Shown here: positions 33,118-38,630 of the stretch, one piece after another
How the letters are laid out: every line of letters starts with the position of its first letter
How positions within the stretch are numbered: the stretch's first letter is position 1
NCBI GenBank assembly: GCA_032249135.1
Contig: JAVVGL010000013.1
Location: 1 to 58,829 of the forward strand
Source of the DNA: Candidatus Calescibacterium sp.
GTDB lineage: Bacteria > Calescibacteriota > Calescibacteriia > Calescibacteriales > Calescibacteriaceae
DNA: 58,829 nt
Direction: 5' to 3'
Translations under genes and position numbers: made by a program
Notes under the pieces: model-generated
The model's input: only the letters and a program-made list of their open reading frames with translations
Told to the model about the DNA's origin: nothing
Database searches by the model: none

Positions 33118-33687
33118 ATGCAAAAAGCAGAGGGTGGCATCTTTGCAGCGGATTATGAAACAGCGGAAAAATATTTACAAAGAATTATAGAACTATTCCC
33201 AACTTCTCAATATGTTCCAGATGCAAATTTTGGTTTAGCTTATGTTAGGATGAAAAAAGGAGATTGTGCCGAAGCTGCTGTTTTATTTGAAAATTTTTAT
33301 CAAAGATACAGCTCTCACAAAAAATCTCCTCATGCTTTGTATTATTCTATTTTGTGCTATATGAAATTTGTTGATACGGCTGATAGAGATATTGAATATG
33401 TGAAAAAAGTAAGAGAGTTATCTTCAATATTCCTTCAAAGGTATCCAGACCACGAAAAAGCAGAAGAAGTATCAAAAATAAGGGAGAAGGTTCTTAATAT
33501 TTTAGCAGAGCATCACCTTCTTGTCGCAGAGTTTTATTTAAGAAGGAAATTATATGAGCCAGCTATAAGAAGGCTTGAAATTATTGTTGAAAAAGACAAG
33601 GAGCTTTTGGGGACATCTGTTGGGAAAAAAGCTCAAAAGCTTTACGAGGAAATAAAGAAAGATAAAACTTCGCGGTTGCAATATTAA
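33118..33687 (+). CDS. bamD: Outer membrane assembly lipoprotein BamD (5' end uncertain)
   Basis: TPR pattern FPTSQY, YSSH, DRD, LAEHHLLVAEFYLRR...AIRR; frame stays open upstream to FRCAQRKPP but has no in-frame start after TAG 33019. Confidence 0.8.
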   Translation: MQKAEGGIFAADYETAEKYLQRIIELFPTSQYVPDANFGLAYVRMKKGDCAEAAVLFENFYQRYSSHKKSPHALYYSILCYMKFVDTADRDIEYVKKVRELSSIFLQRYPDHEKAEEVSKIREKVLNILAEHHLLVAEFYLRRKLYEPAIRRLEIIVEKDKELLGTSVGKKAQKLYEEIKKDKTSRLQY

Positions 33688-33745
33688 ACTTTATATTTTT
33701 TGGATGGCTTGAAAAGGCATTTGTTTTTTAAATTCTAAATTGTTT

Positions 33746-33781
33746 TTCCTTCAATTTTGTCTATTCCTTCAATTTTGTCTA
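33746..33781. repeat. Perfect 18-nt tandem duplication (TTCCTTCAATTTTGTCTA x2) between bamD and rplY
   Basis: Read directly from sequence. Confidence 0.9.
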
Positions 33782-33809
33782 TTGTTTTTTTATTTTTAGT
33801 TTTTTGAGG

Positions 33810-34112
33810 TCAGTTGTGTTCTATAATTTCTTTGCAATAAAAATCAAAGTGTATCGGTAAATCTGTGATTGGATTTATTTGTACATCTTGCAACCTTACT
33901 CTGTATATTTTGTTTTCTACGGCTATTTCAAATTCTGTTACACCTGCTTTTAGGATTTTTGAAATATCACTATATTTTACTTTTAAGTGTTCGTAAATTT
34001 TCCCATTTGCATATATTACCGCAGGAATAAAGCCTTGCTTTCTTATTTTTTTCGCATCTTCTTTCCCAAGTTTTTCTCTCTTTGATCCCTCTATCCTTAT
34101 TACTTCTGCCAT
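33810..34112 (-). CDS. rplY: 50S ribosomal protein L25 (short form)
   Basis: GK.DAKKIRKQGFIPAVIY, QDVQINP...IHFDFY. Confidence 0.9.
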   Translation of the reverse strand: MAEVIRIEGSKREKLGKEDAKKIRKQGFIPAVIYANGKIYEHLKVKYSDISKILKAGVTEFEIAVENKIYRVRLQDVQINPITDLPIHFDFYCKEIIEHN

Positions 34113-34293
34113 AATATTCCTATTTTTTACCTTACTAAAAAAGTTTCTTTTTTTTCAGATTTTATTTGGACAGAGCTTTATATACACTTTTATTTTACAA
34201 TTACGGGATTCGCCAGAGCAAACTATCATTGACTATTGTTGAAGGAAGAAAGGAGAAAACAAAAATAAAAATCTTACCTTAATTTATATTCAA

Positions 34294-35547
34294 ATGCCAT
34301 CTTATATTGGACGACTAAAAAAAAGCCAAATAGAAGAGTTATTTAAAAATCATGTTTCATCTGGGAAAGTAAGAGTTTTCACTTCGTTCGGTATGGATTT
34401 TATCTTCGGTAAAAGAGATGGAATTTATGTCTATGATGTGGAGACCGGAAAGGAACTTATAAATTGCCATTGCAACGGGGGGGTCTTTAATTTGGGACAT
34501 AGAAATCCTGAAATAGTTAATACTCTCAAAGACGCTTTGAATGAACTTGATATAGGTAATCATCATCTGATAAGTGAACAAAGAGCACTTCTTGCGAAAA
34601 AGATGGCTGACCTTATGCCTCCGGGCATAACTTACACAGTTTTTGGAGTTGGAGGGGGTGAAGCTGTTGACCTTGCTATAAAAATTGCAAGAGCTTACAC
34701 GAAAAGACCAAAAATAATATCAGCAAAAGGTGGATATCATGGACACACAGGTTTTGCTCTTGCTACCGGAGATGAAAAATATAAAAAACCATTTGAACCA
34801 CTTGCACCCGGATTTGTACAGGTCCCATTCAACGACATTGAAAGCCTTGAAAAAGCTGTTGATTCTGAAACTGCTGCGGTTATTTTTGAAACTGTTCCAG
34901 CTACTCTTGGAATTTATGTCCCGGATAAAGAATTTTTTAAGGGAGTGAGGGAAATTTGCAACAGAAAGGGTGCTCTAATGATTATTGATGAAGTTCAAAC
35001 TGGTCTTGGAAGAACTGGGAAACTTTGGGGGATAGAACATTTTGGAGTTGTTCCAGATATAATCGTCGTTGGAAAAGGTTTGAGCGGGGGAATTTACCCT
35101 ATATCTGCCACATCTTTTAAAGCTGAGCTTGAAAGCGTTTTTCATAATGACCCATTTATTCATGTCTCAACTTTCGGTGGAGCTGAATTAGGCTGTGTTG
35201 TTGCGATGAAAGTTCTTGAAATATCTTCTTCTCCTGAATTCCTCAAACATGTAAATGATATAGCAGAATTTTTTAAAAGGGAACTCAATAAGTTGAAAGA
35301 TGAGTATTCTGATGTGATATCGGAAATAAGACAGCTTGGAATGATGATGGGTATAAAAATGAAAAATGAGCTTTTATGCATGTATATGGTGAAAGCTTGT
35401 TATGAATCTGGGCTTTTATGTATATACGCTAATAATGATCCATCCGTACTTCAATTCCTTCCTCCTCTGATAATAAAAGAATATGAAGCAGAGGAGGTTA
35501 TAAGAAGACTTGATAGAGCACTCTCTATGGTAAGCAAAATTGCCTGA
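34294..35547 (+). CDS. Class III PLP-dependent aminotransferase family protein
   Basis: GVFNLGHRNP, GGEAVD, GYHG, DEVQTGLGRTG, GKGLSGG (PLP Lys), STFGG, FLPPL. Confidence 0.92.
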   Translation: MPSYIGRLKKSQIEELFKNHVSSGKVRVFTSFGMDFIFGKRDGIYVYDVETGKELINCHCNGGVFNLGHRNPEIVNTLKDALNELDIGNHHLISEQRALLAKKMADLMPPGITYTVFGVGGGEAVDLAIKIARAYTKRPKIISAKGGYHGHTGFALATGDEKYKKPFEPLAPGFVQVPFNDIESLEKAVDSETAAVIFETVPATLGIYVPDKEFFKGVREICNRKGALMIIDEVQTGLGRTGKLWGIEHFGVVPDIIVVGKGLSGGIYPISATSFKAELESVFHNDPFIHVSTFGGAELGCVVAMKVLEISSSPEFLKHVNDIAEFFKRELNKLKDEYSDVISEIRQLGMMMGIKMKNELLCMYMVKACYESGLLCIYANNDPSVLQFLPPLIIKEYEAEEVIRRLDRALSMVSKIA

Positions 35548-35603
35548 TATTTTTTATGTTTTTTGTAAGTGTTTTTTGCTTGAATTGATAATTATCGTGA
35601 TAT

Positions 35604-35663
35604 GGTTTTTATTGAAAAATGGTTTTTTTATTGAAAAATCGTTTTTTATTGAAAAATGGTTTT
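35604..35663. repeat. Three imperfect tandem copies of (G/C)G-T5-7-ATTGAAAAAT directly upstream of ORF 35671
   Basis: GGTTTTTATTGAAAAAT, GGTTTTTTTATTGAAAAAT, CGTTTTTTATTGAAAAAT, then GGTTTT. Confidence 0.85.
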
Positions 35664-35670
35664 CTGATAT

Positions 35671-36624
35671 GTGAGCGAAAAAATGCTTTTTGATATAAAT
35701 AAAAATATTTTGAAAGAATTTGAAGATGGACTGAATACATTGAACCCCGAAAAAAGTAAAATCCCAGCAAGAATAATAGGCTACGGAGAGATAAGTACGG
35801 TTTTTATTATTGAACATCCTTCATTTCATTCTCTGGTTTTCAAAAGGATACCTGTATTTTCTTCCAGAGAGGAAGCTGAATATTATGACGGAATCTTGCA
35901 AGAATATTTGCAGATATTGAAAGATGATGTCGGAATAGATGTTGCACAATCGCAAGGTGTAATAGTTGAAACATCTGACGGAAGAATTGTTTATTATATA
36001 GCCCAAGAGCTTATACCTAAATCAAACATTGCAAATTCATTTATAACTTCGGTTGATGACAAAGATAGGACAAATGTTTTTAAGCATGCAGTTATTGAGA
36101 TTCTCAAAGTAAAGACTTTCAACGACCGAAGTAGTAAAATAAAGGTTGGCATTGATGGACAAATATCTAACTGGGCAGTTAAAAACTCTTCGGGAAATAT
36201 ACATTCGGGAAATATACAATTGACTTATATTGATGTATCTACTCCGCTTTATAGAAAAGATGGTAAGGAGATGCTTCCTGCTGAATTGTTTCTGAAAAGC
36301 ACTCCGCCAATTATCAGGGGTATTTTAAAATTAGCTTTCCTTAAGGAGGTCCTTGATAGATATTATGATTTCAAATCTATATTAATTGACCTTGTAGCAA
36401 ACCTTTTTAAGGAGGGGCTGATTGAATTTGTTCCAAAAGCTGTGGATATTGTGAATGATTTCCTTGATGACAAAATTTCTTTTGAGCAGGTCAAATCTTA
36501 TTACAAAAGGGATGCATTTATATGGAGTTTATTCCAATCTATGAGGCGAACTCACAGATTTTTCAGAACAAAAATTATGAGAAAAAGATACGAATTCATA
36601 CTCCCAGGAAAAATAAAAAGATAA
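35671..36624 (+). CDS. Uncharacterised protein (DUF6206-like from recall) with protein-kinase-like fold motifs
   Basis: IGYGEISTV (Gly loop), VFKR (Lys), IDGQISN (DxxxxN), YID (metal-binding Asp). Confidence 0.65.
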   Translation: MSEKMLFDINKNILKEFEDGLNTLNPEKSKIPARIIGYGEISTVFIIEHPSFHSLVFKRIPVFSSREEAEYYDGILQEYLQILKDDVGIDVAQSQGVIVETSDGRIVYYIAQELIPKSNIANSFITSVDDKDRTNVFKHAVIEILKVKTFNDRSSKIKVGIDGQISNWAVKNSSGNIHSGNIQLTYIDVSTPLYRKDGKEMLPAELFLKSTPPIIRGILKLAFLKEVLDRYYDFKSILIDLVANLFKEGLIEFVPKAVDIVNDFLDDKISFEQVKSYYKRDAFIWSLFQSMRRTHRFFRTKIMRKRYEFILPGKIKR

Positions 36625-36818
36625 AAGGGAAAAAGTGATAGAAGAGAAGGCGGAGACTTTCAGAGGCTGATTTTTATAGGAGAATTTAGCTTTTGAAAAT
36701 CTGAAATCAAATTTGGTCGGGATTGCAAATTTTTGTGGAAAAATTTAATTTCTTTATTAAAATATTTTGATCGTTAAATTAAAAACTAAAAAATTAAAAT
36801 GAAAAGGAGGTAAAAAAT

Positions 36819-38630
36819 ATGCAGTATGAGGTAAAAATACCTTTCAGGAACATTCCTGATCTTTACAAGTGGAGGGTGAACGAGACGCCGGATAGACCTG
36901 CTTTCTCATATAAAAAAGATAATCAGTGGGTAGATATCAGTTGGAAAGACTTTTTTGAAAGAGCGAAATGTATAGCCTCTGCGCTAATTCATATGGGATT
37001 CAAAAAAGGGAACACAGCTGCGATATATTCCTACAACAGGCTTGAATAGGTTTTAGCAGATCTTGGAATTCTGCTTGCAGGTGGTGCTTCGGTTACTATA
37101 TATCATTCTTTACCTTTCAACCAATCATCTTACATAATCAACGATTCTGACTCCATTTTCGTTTTTGCTGAAAACAAAGCAATAATTGAGGAGATGAAGG
37201 AAAAGAGAACTGAAATCCCGAATGTTCAAAAGGTTATATCTTTTGATAACGGAGTTAAGGAGGGAGATTTTATTATTGGTTTTAAAACATTTGAGGATTT
37301 GGGAAGGAGCTACTTGAGAAATTATGAAAAGCAAATAGAGGAGAACATAGAAAAAATAAAACTTGATGATATAGCAACTATAGTATATACATCTGGAACC
37401 ACAGGCGTTCCAAAGGGAGTTATTCAGACGCACCTTAATCATCTCTCTATGGTTGAGATGCTCTATGATATTGGAGATATCAGAGAGGATGATGTATGTT
37501 TGTTATTTCTGCCTCTTGCACATTCTTTTGCAAAAGCAGTTGAGTATGTCCATCCGAGATTTGGTATAAAAATAGCCTTTGCTGAAAGTATAGATAAAGT
37601 TATAGATAATCTCGCGGAGGTGAGACCTACGGTATTCCCATCTGTTCCGAGAGTTTTTGAAAAAGTTTATGCAAAAGTTAGAGCTAATGCCGAGGCAAGT
37701 CCTATAAAAAAGAAAATTTTTGATTGGGCAATCTCGGTCGGTAAAAAATATGGTGATTACAAGATAAAAGGTCAAAAGCCACCTTTGGGGCTTTCTATAA
37801 AACATAAAATAGCTCATAAGCTCGTTTTCTCAAAGATTCACGAAAGGGTTGGAGGAAGAATAAGATTCTTCATATCCGGTGGAGCTCCGTTGTCAAAGGA
37901 AATAGCTGAGTTTTTCTGGGCTGCTGGACTTCTAATTCTTGAAGGATATGGTCTCACAGAAACTACTCCTGCTATATCTATAAATACAACTCGTGAATTC
38001 AAATTCGGAACTGTTGGGAAACCCTTGAAATGGGTTGAAGTTAAGATTGCAGAAGATGGTGAGATATTGGCTCGCGGTCCAAACATAGCGAAAGGATATT
38101 GGAAAAAACCAAAAGAAACAGAGGAGGTTTTCAAGCCAGATGGTTGGTTCCACACAGGTGATATCGGTATCATAGATGAAGATGGTTTTCTGAAAATAAC
38201 AGATAGGAAGAAAGACCTTATAAAGACTGCTGGTGGAAAGTATGTTGCTCCGCAACCTATTGAGAATGCTATAAAGGCTGGTTCTCCTCTTATAAGTCAA
38301 GCCGTTGTCATAGGAGATGCAAGACCGTACTGTGTAGCTCTGATTACTCTCAACAAAGATGAAGTTTTGAACTTTGCAAAAGCGAAAGGATTAGATACAT
38401 CAAAAAGCTATGAAGAGATAATAAATGATCCAGTAATCGTTTCAGAAATACAGAAGGTTATTGACGGAGTGAATTCAAAACTTGCTTCTTTTGAGACGAT
38501 AAAGAAATTCAGAATTATTCCTCAAGATTTTATGATTGAAGACGGTTCATTAACTCCAACTTTGAAGGTAAAAAGGAAAGTTATTATGGAAAGATATAAA
38601 GATATTATAAATGAAATGTATTCTTCTTGA
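36819..38630 (+). pseudogene. Long-chain fatty acid--CoA ligase interrupted by a single in-frame TAG at 37047-37049
   Basis: ORFs 36819 and 37194 share a frame with no other stop; NRLE*VLADLG aligns to the family pattern NRxEW; YTSGTTGVPKG, GYGLTET, WFHTGDIG, DRKKDLI; AAGGAGG RBS. Confidence 0.88.

Follow-up and report, generated by a model that had tools for sequence, protein, structure and literature searches.

Which reactions are catalyzed by two adjacent proteins when one resembles an aminotransferase and the other carries a Pfam domain of unknown function (DUF)? The question was raised by a stretch of DNA of 58,829 nucleotides (nt) from Candidatus Calescibacterium sp. (assembly GCA_032249135.1, contig JAVVGL010000013.1), here called the window, in which a class III-fold pyridoxal phosphate (PLP) enzyme and a DUF6206 protein are encoded next to each other. 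The reading that we favor, tentatively and as plausible if not quite probable, is that the DUF6206 protein is a kinase and the PLP enzyme a phosphate-eliminating lyase, which together act on a small amine-bearing metabolite. The original prediction, made from the letters of the window, had proposed a kinase paired with a phospho-lyase or transaminase for an amino alcohol. Its fold, the conservation of its key residues, and the co-occurrence of the two genes were all borne out, whereas the kinase activity, the amino-alcohol substrate, and the elimination of phosphate are put forward below in conditional terms.

Organization of the locus

The source genome (2.10 Mb in 51 contigs, 87% complete) has Candidatus Calescibacterium nevadense as its nearest named relative, and the GC content of the window is approximately 0.30 to 0.38. 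The order of genes on the + strand is the PLP enzyme, a 135-nt spacer, the DUF6206 open reading frame (ORF), 194 nt, and an acyl-CoA ligase. The three genes follow each other on one strand as had been described before; the match to PF00202 upstream and the AMP-binding acyl-CoA ligase downstream agree with that description. The two genes of interest are:

34294..35547, + strand: class III-fold PLP enzyme of 417 amino acids (PF00202, E 2.9e-91, 306.6 bits)
35683..36624, + strand: DUF6206 gene, predicted ATP-dependent kinase of 313 amino acids counted from the ATG (PF19709)

The longest ORF for the DUF6206 protein covers 35671-36624 on the + strand and starts with a GTG codon, giving 317 amino acids. 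The true start is probably the ATG codon at 35683, because a relative locus (L001), which is 92% identical to the window over its DNA stretch and encodes a DUF6206 protein with 87% identity, contains an in-frame TAA codon upstream of the matching ATG, and because the homologues begin at this position. Residue numbers of the DUF6206 protein are nevertheless counted from the GTG at 35671 throughout. The family name given previously is correct: the protein matched PF19709 with an E value of 3.4e-22 and 79.4 bits, against a cut-off of 30.4, over profile positions 33-270 of 271. The gene is present in a single copy in the source genome.

The DUF6206 protein is predicted to have a kinase fold

The structure of the DUF6206 protein was predicted with AlphaFold2 from an alignment of 30 sequences, which yielded a model with a mean predicted local distance difference test (pLDDT) score of 92.7 and a predicted template modeling (pTM) score of 0.90. 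All of the 50 matches listed by Foldseek against the PDB were kinases, with E values from 1.1e-5 to 8e-5 and template modeling (TM) scores from 0.27 to 0.42. They included CDK11B, WaaP, PKR, CDK1, PsiK, and APH(2''), and the best of them were the eukaryotic-type protein kinases CDK11B, PKR, and CDK1. The model was also compared with 48,161 representative chains using VIA-align, for which the stated background Z is 7 to 8. The Z values of the best 50 matches ranged from 11.5 to 8.7, and every match with a named chain was a kinase or phosphotransferase. The amicoumacin kinase AmiN (6sum) was placed first, with a Z of 11.5 over 229 residues and a root-mean-square deviation (rmsd) of 5.2, and was followed by an unnamed chain from an axoneme map (Z 10.8), the aminopropanol kinase 6ef6 (Z 10.8), and the aminoglycoside phosphotransferase (APH) APH(2'')-IIIa (3tdv, Z 10.5). 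Next came the KEOPS chain 8k20_B, WaaP, Rv3168, N-acetylhexosamine kinase, and additional APH enzymes, with Bud32 (4ww5) at rank 13. The 12 of these 50 matches that extended to residue 317 were all small-molecule or peptide phosphotransferases, whereas the alignments to protein kinases stopped by residue 287. We read the predicted architecture as APH/choline-kinase-like. The protein-kinase-like fold suggested by the original prediction is thus recovered by both programs, at the level of a predicted model.

Conservation was assessed in an alignment of 30 homologues with 41% to 89% identity to the window protein. The motifs on which the kinase assignment had been built lie in the translation where they had been placed (35776, 35842, 36154-36171, and 36232):

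from 35776, + strand: Gly-rich loop stretch I36-G-Y-G-E-I-S-T-V
35779..35796, + strand: Gly-rich loop G37-Y-G-E-I-S42, between the predicted strands 33-38 and 43-47
35842..35844, + strand: K58 of VFKR, candidate ATP-binding beta3 Lys (K in 30/30, predicted strand 55-63)
36154..36171, + strand: catalytic-loop motif D162-G-Q-I-S-N167 (D162, Q164, S166, and N167 in 30/30)
36232..36234, + strand: D188 of Y-I-D, candidate metal-binding Asp at the position of the DFG Asp (Y186 and D188 in 30/30)
36589..36621, + strand: conserved C-terminal tail from Y307 to the last residue R317, a predicted coil after helix 271-302

Residues G37, G39, E40, S42, K58, R59, D162, Q164, S166, N167, W168, Y186, and D188 were identical in all 30 homologues, as were T191-P192, which places the motifs beyond chance. 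The Lys, Asp, Asn, and Asp of the putative catalytic site (K58, D162, N167, and D188) are all among the invariant residues. The acidic helix EEAEYY, which had been listed as a further kinase motif, was not conserved: E67 was found in 17/30, E68 in 20/30 (with Q in 10), and E70 in 14/30, and only Y72 was invariant. In the tail, Y307, L311, P312, I315, and R317 were present in 30/30, and this segment may serve as a docking or lid element. Judging from the model, the DUF6206 protein looks like a working small-molecule kinase, and its activity would be ATP-dependent.

Searches with the sequence itself gave no link to the APH family (PF01636), no match to a solved chain at E < 0.1, and no NCBIfam match, and the protein atlas returned sub-threshold leads only (ABC1, RIO1, and YrbL, at 0.87 to 0.88). 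The family is of moderate size: when 1.84 billion cluster representatives were searched with a profile, 792 matched DUF6206 at E <= 0.001. Some members are longer, with 430 to 527 amino acids and an N-terminal extension of approximately 120 to 250 residues (P0134, P0138, P0162, P0167, P0177, P0189, P0202, and others); the extension had no Pfam match in 22 of the 23 that were scanned. Another variant, a single case (P0263, 392 amino acids), combines a beta-keto-acid-cleavage-enzyme domain (PF05853), of which only the first half is present, with a DUF6206 part without the N-lobe. This protein probably represents two adjacent genes merged by a deletion or a gene-calling artefact, and it hints at a keto-acid or amino-acid catabolic neighborhood in that organism.

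The two genes are tightly coupled

To place the pair in a broader context, a pattern scan was performed on one genome per species. At least 566 of the 599 matched stretches were confirmed as DUF6206 relatives, such that at least 566 species genomes carry DUF6206, and the best 80 loci were kept. In 73 of the 80 genome loci, the gene directly beside DUF6206, and co-oriented with it, encoded an orthologue of the PLP enzyme (46% to 95% identical). The gene for the PLP enzyme was located first in 56 of these and the gene for the kinase in 17, the distance between them ranged from a 47-nt overlap to a gap of 207 nt, and many pairs overlapped by 4 to 7 nt. Among the 7 loci that lacked an adjacent partner, 4 had the kinase gene no more than 620 nt from the end of the contig, and 2 belonged to genomes with a signature-bearing orthologue on another contig. 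The last exception was genome G015, which contained canonical relatives only, with 43% and 41% identity.

The reverse search, which started from patterns of the PLP enzyme alone and was run on metagenome contigs, identified a co-oriented DUF6206 gene next to it in 73 of 80 loci. In 6 of the 7 exceptions, about 210 nt or less separated the gene from the end of the contig on one side, whereas the seventh (L137) was truly without DUF6206. The pair is found together in both directions, with the qualification that the genome and metagenome counts are not fully independent, since some contigs may stem from the same organisms. The pairwise distances of the two proteins were correlated over 62 loci (r 0.73, a value reached by 0 of 999 permutations), as co-inheritance predicts, although a shared species history alone would give the same result.

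The module is present in Calescibacteriota, Chloroflexota, Thermodesulfobacteriota, Actinomycetota, Asgard archaea, and Archaeoglobi. In a DUF6206 tree built from 39 of the 78 length-filtered rows, the kinase-first order occurred only in a single clade, which comprises Actinomycetota and Anaerolineae. Within the family to which the source organism belongs, DUF6206 was identified in 6 of the 6 other genomes, as compared to 2 of 24 in other families and none of 14 well-known control genomes. The pair is often located among housekeeping genes, such as those for ribosomal proteins, trmD, S-adenosylmethionine (SAM) synthetase, and lysyl-tRNA synthetase (LysRS). A fusion of the kinase with the PLP enzyme was not found, in that no DUF6206 form exceeded 555 amino acids, which is weak evidence, and a complex prediction for the two proteins (score 0.00, mark 0.32) gave no evidence either way. 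The best explanation for the coupling is that the two genes constitute a self-contained two-gene metabolic module.

The PLP enzyme has lost the residues that bind 2-oxoglutarate

The nearest solved relative of the PLP enzyme is the putrescine aminotransferase YgjG/PatA of Escherichia coli (4uox, E 3.7e-70, 240 bits), followed by ArgD/LysJ, PigE, and ornithine aminotransferase (OAT). The predicted structure, with a pLDDT of 91.2, superimposed on 4uox with a TM score of 0.93 and an rmsd of 1.9 at 32% sequence identity. Its orthologues carry the public names [quoted passage not shown] or "putrescine aminotransferase", yet the enzyme scored below every NCBIfam cut-off (argD TIGR00707, 309.4 vs. 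410.05; NF008570, 294 vs. 612; TIGR03372, 253.9 vs. 658.65). A tree was inferred from 23 rows, which included the window enzyme, every fourth of 63 full-length members, GabT, ArgD, and PatA of E. coli, the ArgD-like paralogue of the source genome, and the two canonical relatives from G015. The DUF6206-linked enzymes formed one group with a support of 99/98, which was placed on the PatA side beside the two canonical relatives, in a tree that has long branches and was rooted at the midpoint.

The active site was examined in an alignment of the 63 full-length members among the 73 (10 truncated or over-long ORFs were dropped) to the three E. coli enzymes and the ArgD-like paralogue. The positions of most interest are:

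35074..35076, + strand: K261, PLP Schiff-base Lys, aligned with GabT K268, PatA K300, and the ArgD Lys (K in 63/63)
34903..34905, + strand: T204, at the position of the "switch" Glu (PatA E243, GabT E211, OAT E235; T in 63/63)
35452..35454, + strand: Q387, at the position of the Arg for the alpha-carboxylate of 2-oxoglutarate (PatA R426, GabT R398, OAT R413; Q in 60, I in 2, and K in 1 of 63)
34744..34746, + strand: H151, at the position of the substrate-carboxylate Arg (GabT R141, PatA K183; H in 62/63)

The cofactor residues K261, D232, Q235, and T293 were retained in 63/63 members, whereas the Glu and the Arg, both of which are present in all four references, were replaced. In addition, F91, Q119, and T151 of PatA correspond to G62 (63/63), H90 (61/63), and G122 (63/63). 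The entrance residue F288 matches F327 of PatA, and is a Gly in GabT and ArgD. In YgjG, Glu243, Gln274, and Arg426 are described as strictly conserved in PMC4244111, according to which the Glu-Arg pair binds 2-oxoglutarate and is needed for it. Since this pair is replaced, the PLP enzyme is probably not a 2-oxoglutarate transaminase, and thereby not the enzyme that its public names claim. Of the two activities named by the original prediction, ordinary transamination with 2-oxoglutarate is consequently disfavored, while phosphate elimination is the activity that we would propose.

The source genome encodes ArgD-like, BioA, and HemL paralogues of its own, which makes the PLP enzyme its fourth class III enzyme and means that it is not needed for those roles. 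The HemL protein of the genome, a glutamate-1-semialdehyde 2,1-aminomutase (GSAM; contig C10 of G000, locus L084:910-2298), scored 365.5 bits against GSAM 5i92 and was 27% identical to the PLP enzyme, which itself scored 125 bits against GSAM 3bs8 and is not a HemL orthologue. Two altered active-site loops of the PLP enzyme (34690-34750 and 34885-34915, containing H151 and T204) were however HemL-like, with the motifs Y-H-G-H and E-T-V-P-A-T-L-G, the latter compared to E-V-I-P-A-N-M-G. The HemL of the genome likewise has a His at the position of H151, and it lacks Q235. HemL needs no external oxoacid, and the resemblance of the loops strengthens the view that the PLP enzyme is not an ordinary transaminase, without telling which other reaction it might catalyze.

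A proposed two-step route and its precedents

In the two-step route that we propose, the DUF6206 protein would be an ATP-dependent kinase of the protein-kinase-like fold and of the aminoglycoside/choline-kinase type, and would phosphorylate the hydroxyl group adjacent to the amine-bearing carbon of a small primary amine. The PLP partner would descend from putrescine-aminotransferase-like transaminases and still bind PLP but no longer 2-oxoglutarate. It would form an external aldimine with the terminal amine, abstract the proton at the amine carbon in the manner of its transaminase ancestors, and then expel phosphate by beta-elimination, resulting in a carbonyl compound, ammonia, and phosphate. 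A PatA-like ancestry and the narrow entrance residue F288 shared with PatA suggest that the substrate may be a short aliphatic amine. We would guess at either a short amino alcohol (ethanolamine or 1-amino-2-propanol, for example) or a hydroxylated diamine.

The class III fold is known to include phospho-lyases, as noted in PMC8154272, and a bacterial phospho-lyase structure (5G4I, from A. aurescens) is named in PMC6750192. The scheme most similar to the one proposed here involves the (S)-1-amino-2-propanol kinase 6ef6 from the RMM/Aaum aminoacetone microcompartment of Mycobacterium smegmatis, in which an amino alcohol is phosphorylated and a PLP enzyme then acts on the phosphate ester. This kinase reportedly works with a class III-fold aminopropanol-phosphate phospho-lyase. 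As the second-best structural match, it aligned to the DUF6206 model over 216 residues (Z 10.8, rmsd 5.0), but with only 11% identity in the structural alignment, and DUF6206 has no APH-type Pfam match. The partner of DUF6206 furthermore derives from PatA-like transaminases, and no microcompartment genes were identified in its neighborhood.

The same two-step layout, a kinase followed by a non-transaminase PLP enzyme of the class III fold, applies to hydroxylysine kinase with 5-phosphohydroxylysine phospho-lyase and to ethanolamine kinase with ethanolamine-phosphate phospho-lyase. The analogy to these pairs that had been drawn earlier is apt as a functional likeness, but does not establish membership, in that nearest-neighbor tests position the PLP enzyme beside putrescine aminotransferase and not with the known phospho-lyases. 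With PatA it has in common the side of the tree, the PLP-binding residues, and the entrance Phe, and it departs from PatA at E243, R426, K183, F91, Q119, and T151, where T204, Q387, H151, G62, H90, and G122 are fixed in 60 to 63 of the 63 members. The kinase, for its part, has its best full-length structural matches in AmiN and the APH(2'') and APH(3') enzymes (Z 11.5 to 9.0), in which the order of the motifs is the same, namely Gly-rich loop, Lys, D-x4-N, and Asp. It differs from them by an identity of only 8% to 17%, by a spacing of 21 residues with a variable loop between N167 and D188, and by a genomic context that is not resistance-like.

Weighing the alternatives

Several observations weigh against the kinase and phospho-lyase route. 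The kinase fold rests on prediction, the TM scores of 0.27 to 0.42 are modest, and a Z of 11.5 exceeds the background by only a few units. No Pfam family other than DUF6206, and no kinase family, matched the protein at E <= 0.01, and the family profile gave no match to the APH-family kinase SrkA of E. coli (hhalign probability 0.5). The best candidate for the helix-C Glu, E78, is not invariant (25/30, with R in 3, D in 1, and Q in 1). Neither is the PLP enzyme close to the known phospho-lyases, none of which is named among the best 60 of its 164 solved-structure matches; with PatA, ArgD, PigE, and OAT as its nearest solved relatives, an independent origin of the elimination chemistry would be required. 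The HemL-like loops agree just as well with a mutase-like reaction, or with another reaction outside the lyase type, and the neighboring genes provide no consistent clue to the substrate.

In one alternative, which these loops would suit, the two proteins still act on one shared metabolite, but the PLP step is catalyzed by an aminomutase-like isomerase (with internal amino transfer, as in GSAM), a racemase, or a decarboxylase, and the kinase traps or prepares the product, for example in the synthesis of a phosphorylated amine. The loss of the Glu and Arg residues would suit any reaction without an external 2-oxoacid, class III also includes racemases and a decarboxylase according to PDB names and PMC8154272, and housekeeping surroundings suit biosynthesis or salvage as well as catabolism. 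We nevertheless consider this unlikely, given that the enzyme is far nearer to PatA (240 bits) than to GSAM (125 bits) and has kept the Q235 that is absent from HemL. We also know of no precedent for a kinase paired with a class III mutase. One specific version, in which the pair has a general role in cobamide synthesis by providing aminopropanol phosphate for CbiB, was rejected. The source genome encodes both CbiB and CobS (G000 contigs C17:36992-37852 and C31:3515-4186), and thus assembles the lower part of cobamides, but CbiB was found in only 14 of 50 carrier genomes and was missing from the single-chromosome assemblies G048 and G049.

It is less probable again that the PLP enzyme is still a transaminase, with an unusual acceptor or donor that has no Arg-bound alpha-carboxylate, such as an aldehyde, a ketone, or a pyruvate bound in another way, and that the kinase phosphorylates its substrate or product. 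Such an enzyme would explain why the cofactor residues are all intact, why the fold is nearly identical to that of PatA, and why the entrance Phe is shared with PatA and not with GabT or ArgD (PMC4244111), and it would agree with the public annotation as a putrescine or acetylornithine aminotransferase. It is difficult to reconcile with scores below every NCBIfam transaminase cut-off and with a Glu that is replaced in 63/63 and an Arg that is present in 0/63 members, when this pair is described as strictly conserved in class III aminotransferases.

The remaining explanations assign other roles to the DUF6206 protein. That it is a protein kinase or a non-catalytic partner, which regulates or assembles with the PLP enzyme, would be in line with the eukaryotic-type protein kinases at the top of the Foldseek matches, with the many gene pairs that overlap by a few nucleotides, and with a conserved N-terminal helix and C-terminal tail that could be docking elements. 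We regard this as improbable, because VIA-align puts small-molecule kinases first and only these align across the whole C-terminal helical part, because the complete catalytic set is invariant, and, more weakly, because no fused form was found. An even smaller probability is attached to the inactivation of an amine-bearing antibiotic or xenobiotic by a kinase that acts like the aminoglycoside and amicoumacin kinases. AmiN, APH(2''), APH(3'), and a macrolide phosphotransferase are indeed the top structural matches, but the pair is stably carried in 6 of 6 other genomes of the family of the source organism, and its housekeeping surroundings and constant association with the same PLP enzyme are unlike the pattern of resistance genes. 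Neither protein had a match in the defence library PADLOC, which was not built for resistance genes.

Neighboring genes and other features of the window

The genes around the pair in the window encode BamD, ribosomal protein L25 (on the - strand), LolA, lysyl-tRNA synthetase, and a GH5 glycosidase, which is an ordinary housekeeping setting. Further features at the locus are:

35606..35663, + strand: tandem repeat of 19 nt x 3.1 in the intergenic spacer (TRF score 102)
36189..36218, + strand: 15-nt in-frame tandem duplication SGNIH/SGNIQ in the DUF6206 gene (TRF 2.0 copies, 100% match)
36819-38630, + strand: FadD11-like AMP-binding acyl-CoA ligase with its own ribosome-binding site

Neither the spacer repeat nor the duplication is kept in L001. 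The duplication is located in the variable loop between N167 and D188, which is the block of lowest confidence in the model (pLDDT 67). In an RNA library prepared from a hot-spring sample (run X19), contigs matched the window near-exactly at 34279-35068, 35167-35418, 35571-35978, and 36211-36516, and one unit of the spacer repeat (18 nt) was missing from one of them, indicating that the copy number differs between populations. No X19 contig joined the genes for the PLP enzyme and the DUF6206 protein, and contigs of an RNA library may derive from DNA; as the X19 data consist of contigs only, they demonstrate neither transcription nor an operon. A promoter and terminator scan of 33600-36900 gave no more sites than in shuffled sequence.

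The ligase gene is split by an in-frame TAG codon at 37047-37049, where L001 has TGG (Trp). Position 37048 was a G, giving TGG, in all three other runs that covered it (RNA-library X19 and DNA X4 and X7), so the TAG is private to this assembly or strain and reflects either a nonsense change or an error rather than recoding. The hint in the original prediction that the amino alcohol is possibly lipid-derived rests on the adjacent ligase, which is found in only 7 of the 80 loci and has a premature stop codon here.

After removal of antisense shadow ORFs, no third gene was conserved around the pair, in that no real neighbor occurred in more than 9 of the 80 loci. The most common were a C69-like hydrolase (9/80), the acyl-CoA ligase (7/80, comprising L001, five Asgard loci, and L029), S-adenosylhomocysteine hydrolase (7/80), and glycyl-radical enzymes (5/80). 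The glycyl-radical enzymes are large and encoded within a few kb of the pair (L044:2256-5225, L058:1-5790, L061:2970-5870, L065:139-2535, and L079:9809-12046) in Actinomycetota, Geothermincolia, Anaerolineae, and one deltaproteobacterium; the one in L061 contains an SCP2 domain and is preceded by an activase. These lineages also show repeated occurrences of C69-like hydrolases, amidases, and xylose-isomerase-like barrels. In four Asgard loci from Thor-/Promethearchaeota (L013, L022, L032, and L033), the pair is preceded by genes for an AsnC-type regulator and a hexapeptide transferase; behind it, two acyl-CoA ligases and a component of 2-hydroxyacyl-CoA dehydratase (HGD-D) are encoded on the opposite strand.

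Implications

In the literature library that was searched, no paper mentions DUF6206 and none on its pairing with a PLP enzyme was identified. The concept of a kinase that acts with a class III-fold lyase is known, and both components of the pair studied here come from lineages other than the known ones. The pair probably constitutes a two-step route, not described before, that acts on a small amine.

A more specific possibility, which we consider doubtful, is an independently evolved, B12-independent breakdown of ethanolamine-type compounds, in which a new kinase family and a PatA descendant turned phospho-lyase form a two-gene cassette that has spread horizontally among anaerobes of the subsurface and hot springs, including Asgard archaea. 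With the same reservation, the cassette could be a convergent copy of the ethanolamine-kinase/phospho-lyase route of animals, in prokaryotes that mostly lack EutB and often lack CbiB. The B12-dependent ethanolamine ammonia-lyase EutB was identified in 3 of 50 carrier genomes, a figure that is compatible with this scenario but has no baseline and is not used as support.

If the kinase and phospho-lyase reading is true, it would provide a function for a Pfam DUF and correct the systematic misannotation of its partner as an aminotransferase, despite the lack of the residues for that reaction. It would also represent a clean case of a transaminase scaffold that has been repurposed, apparently independently of the known class III lyases, and models of uncultured anaerobes (Asgard archaea, Dehalococcoidia, Syntrophales, and Calescibacteriota) would gain a metabolic step.

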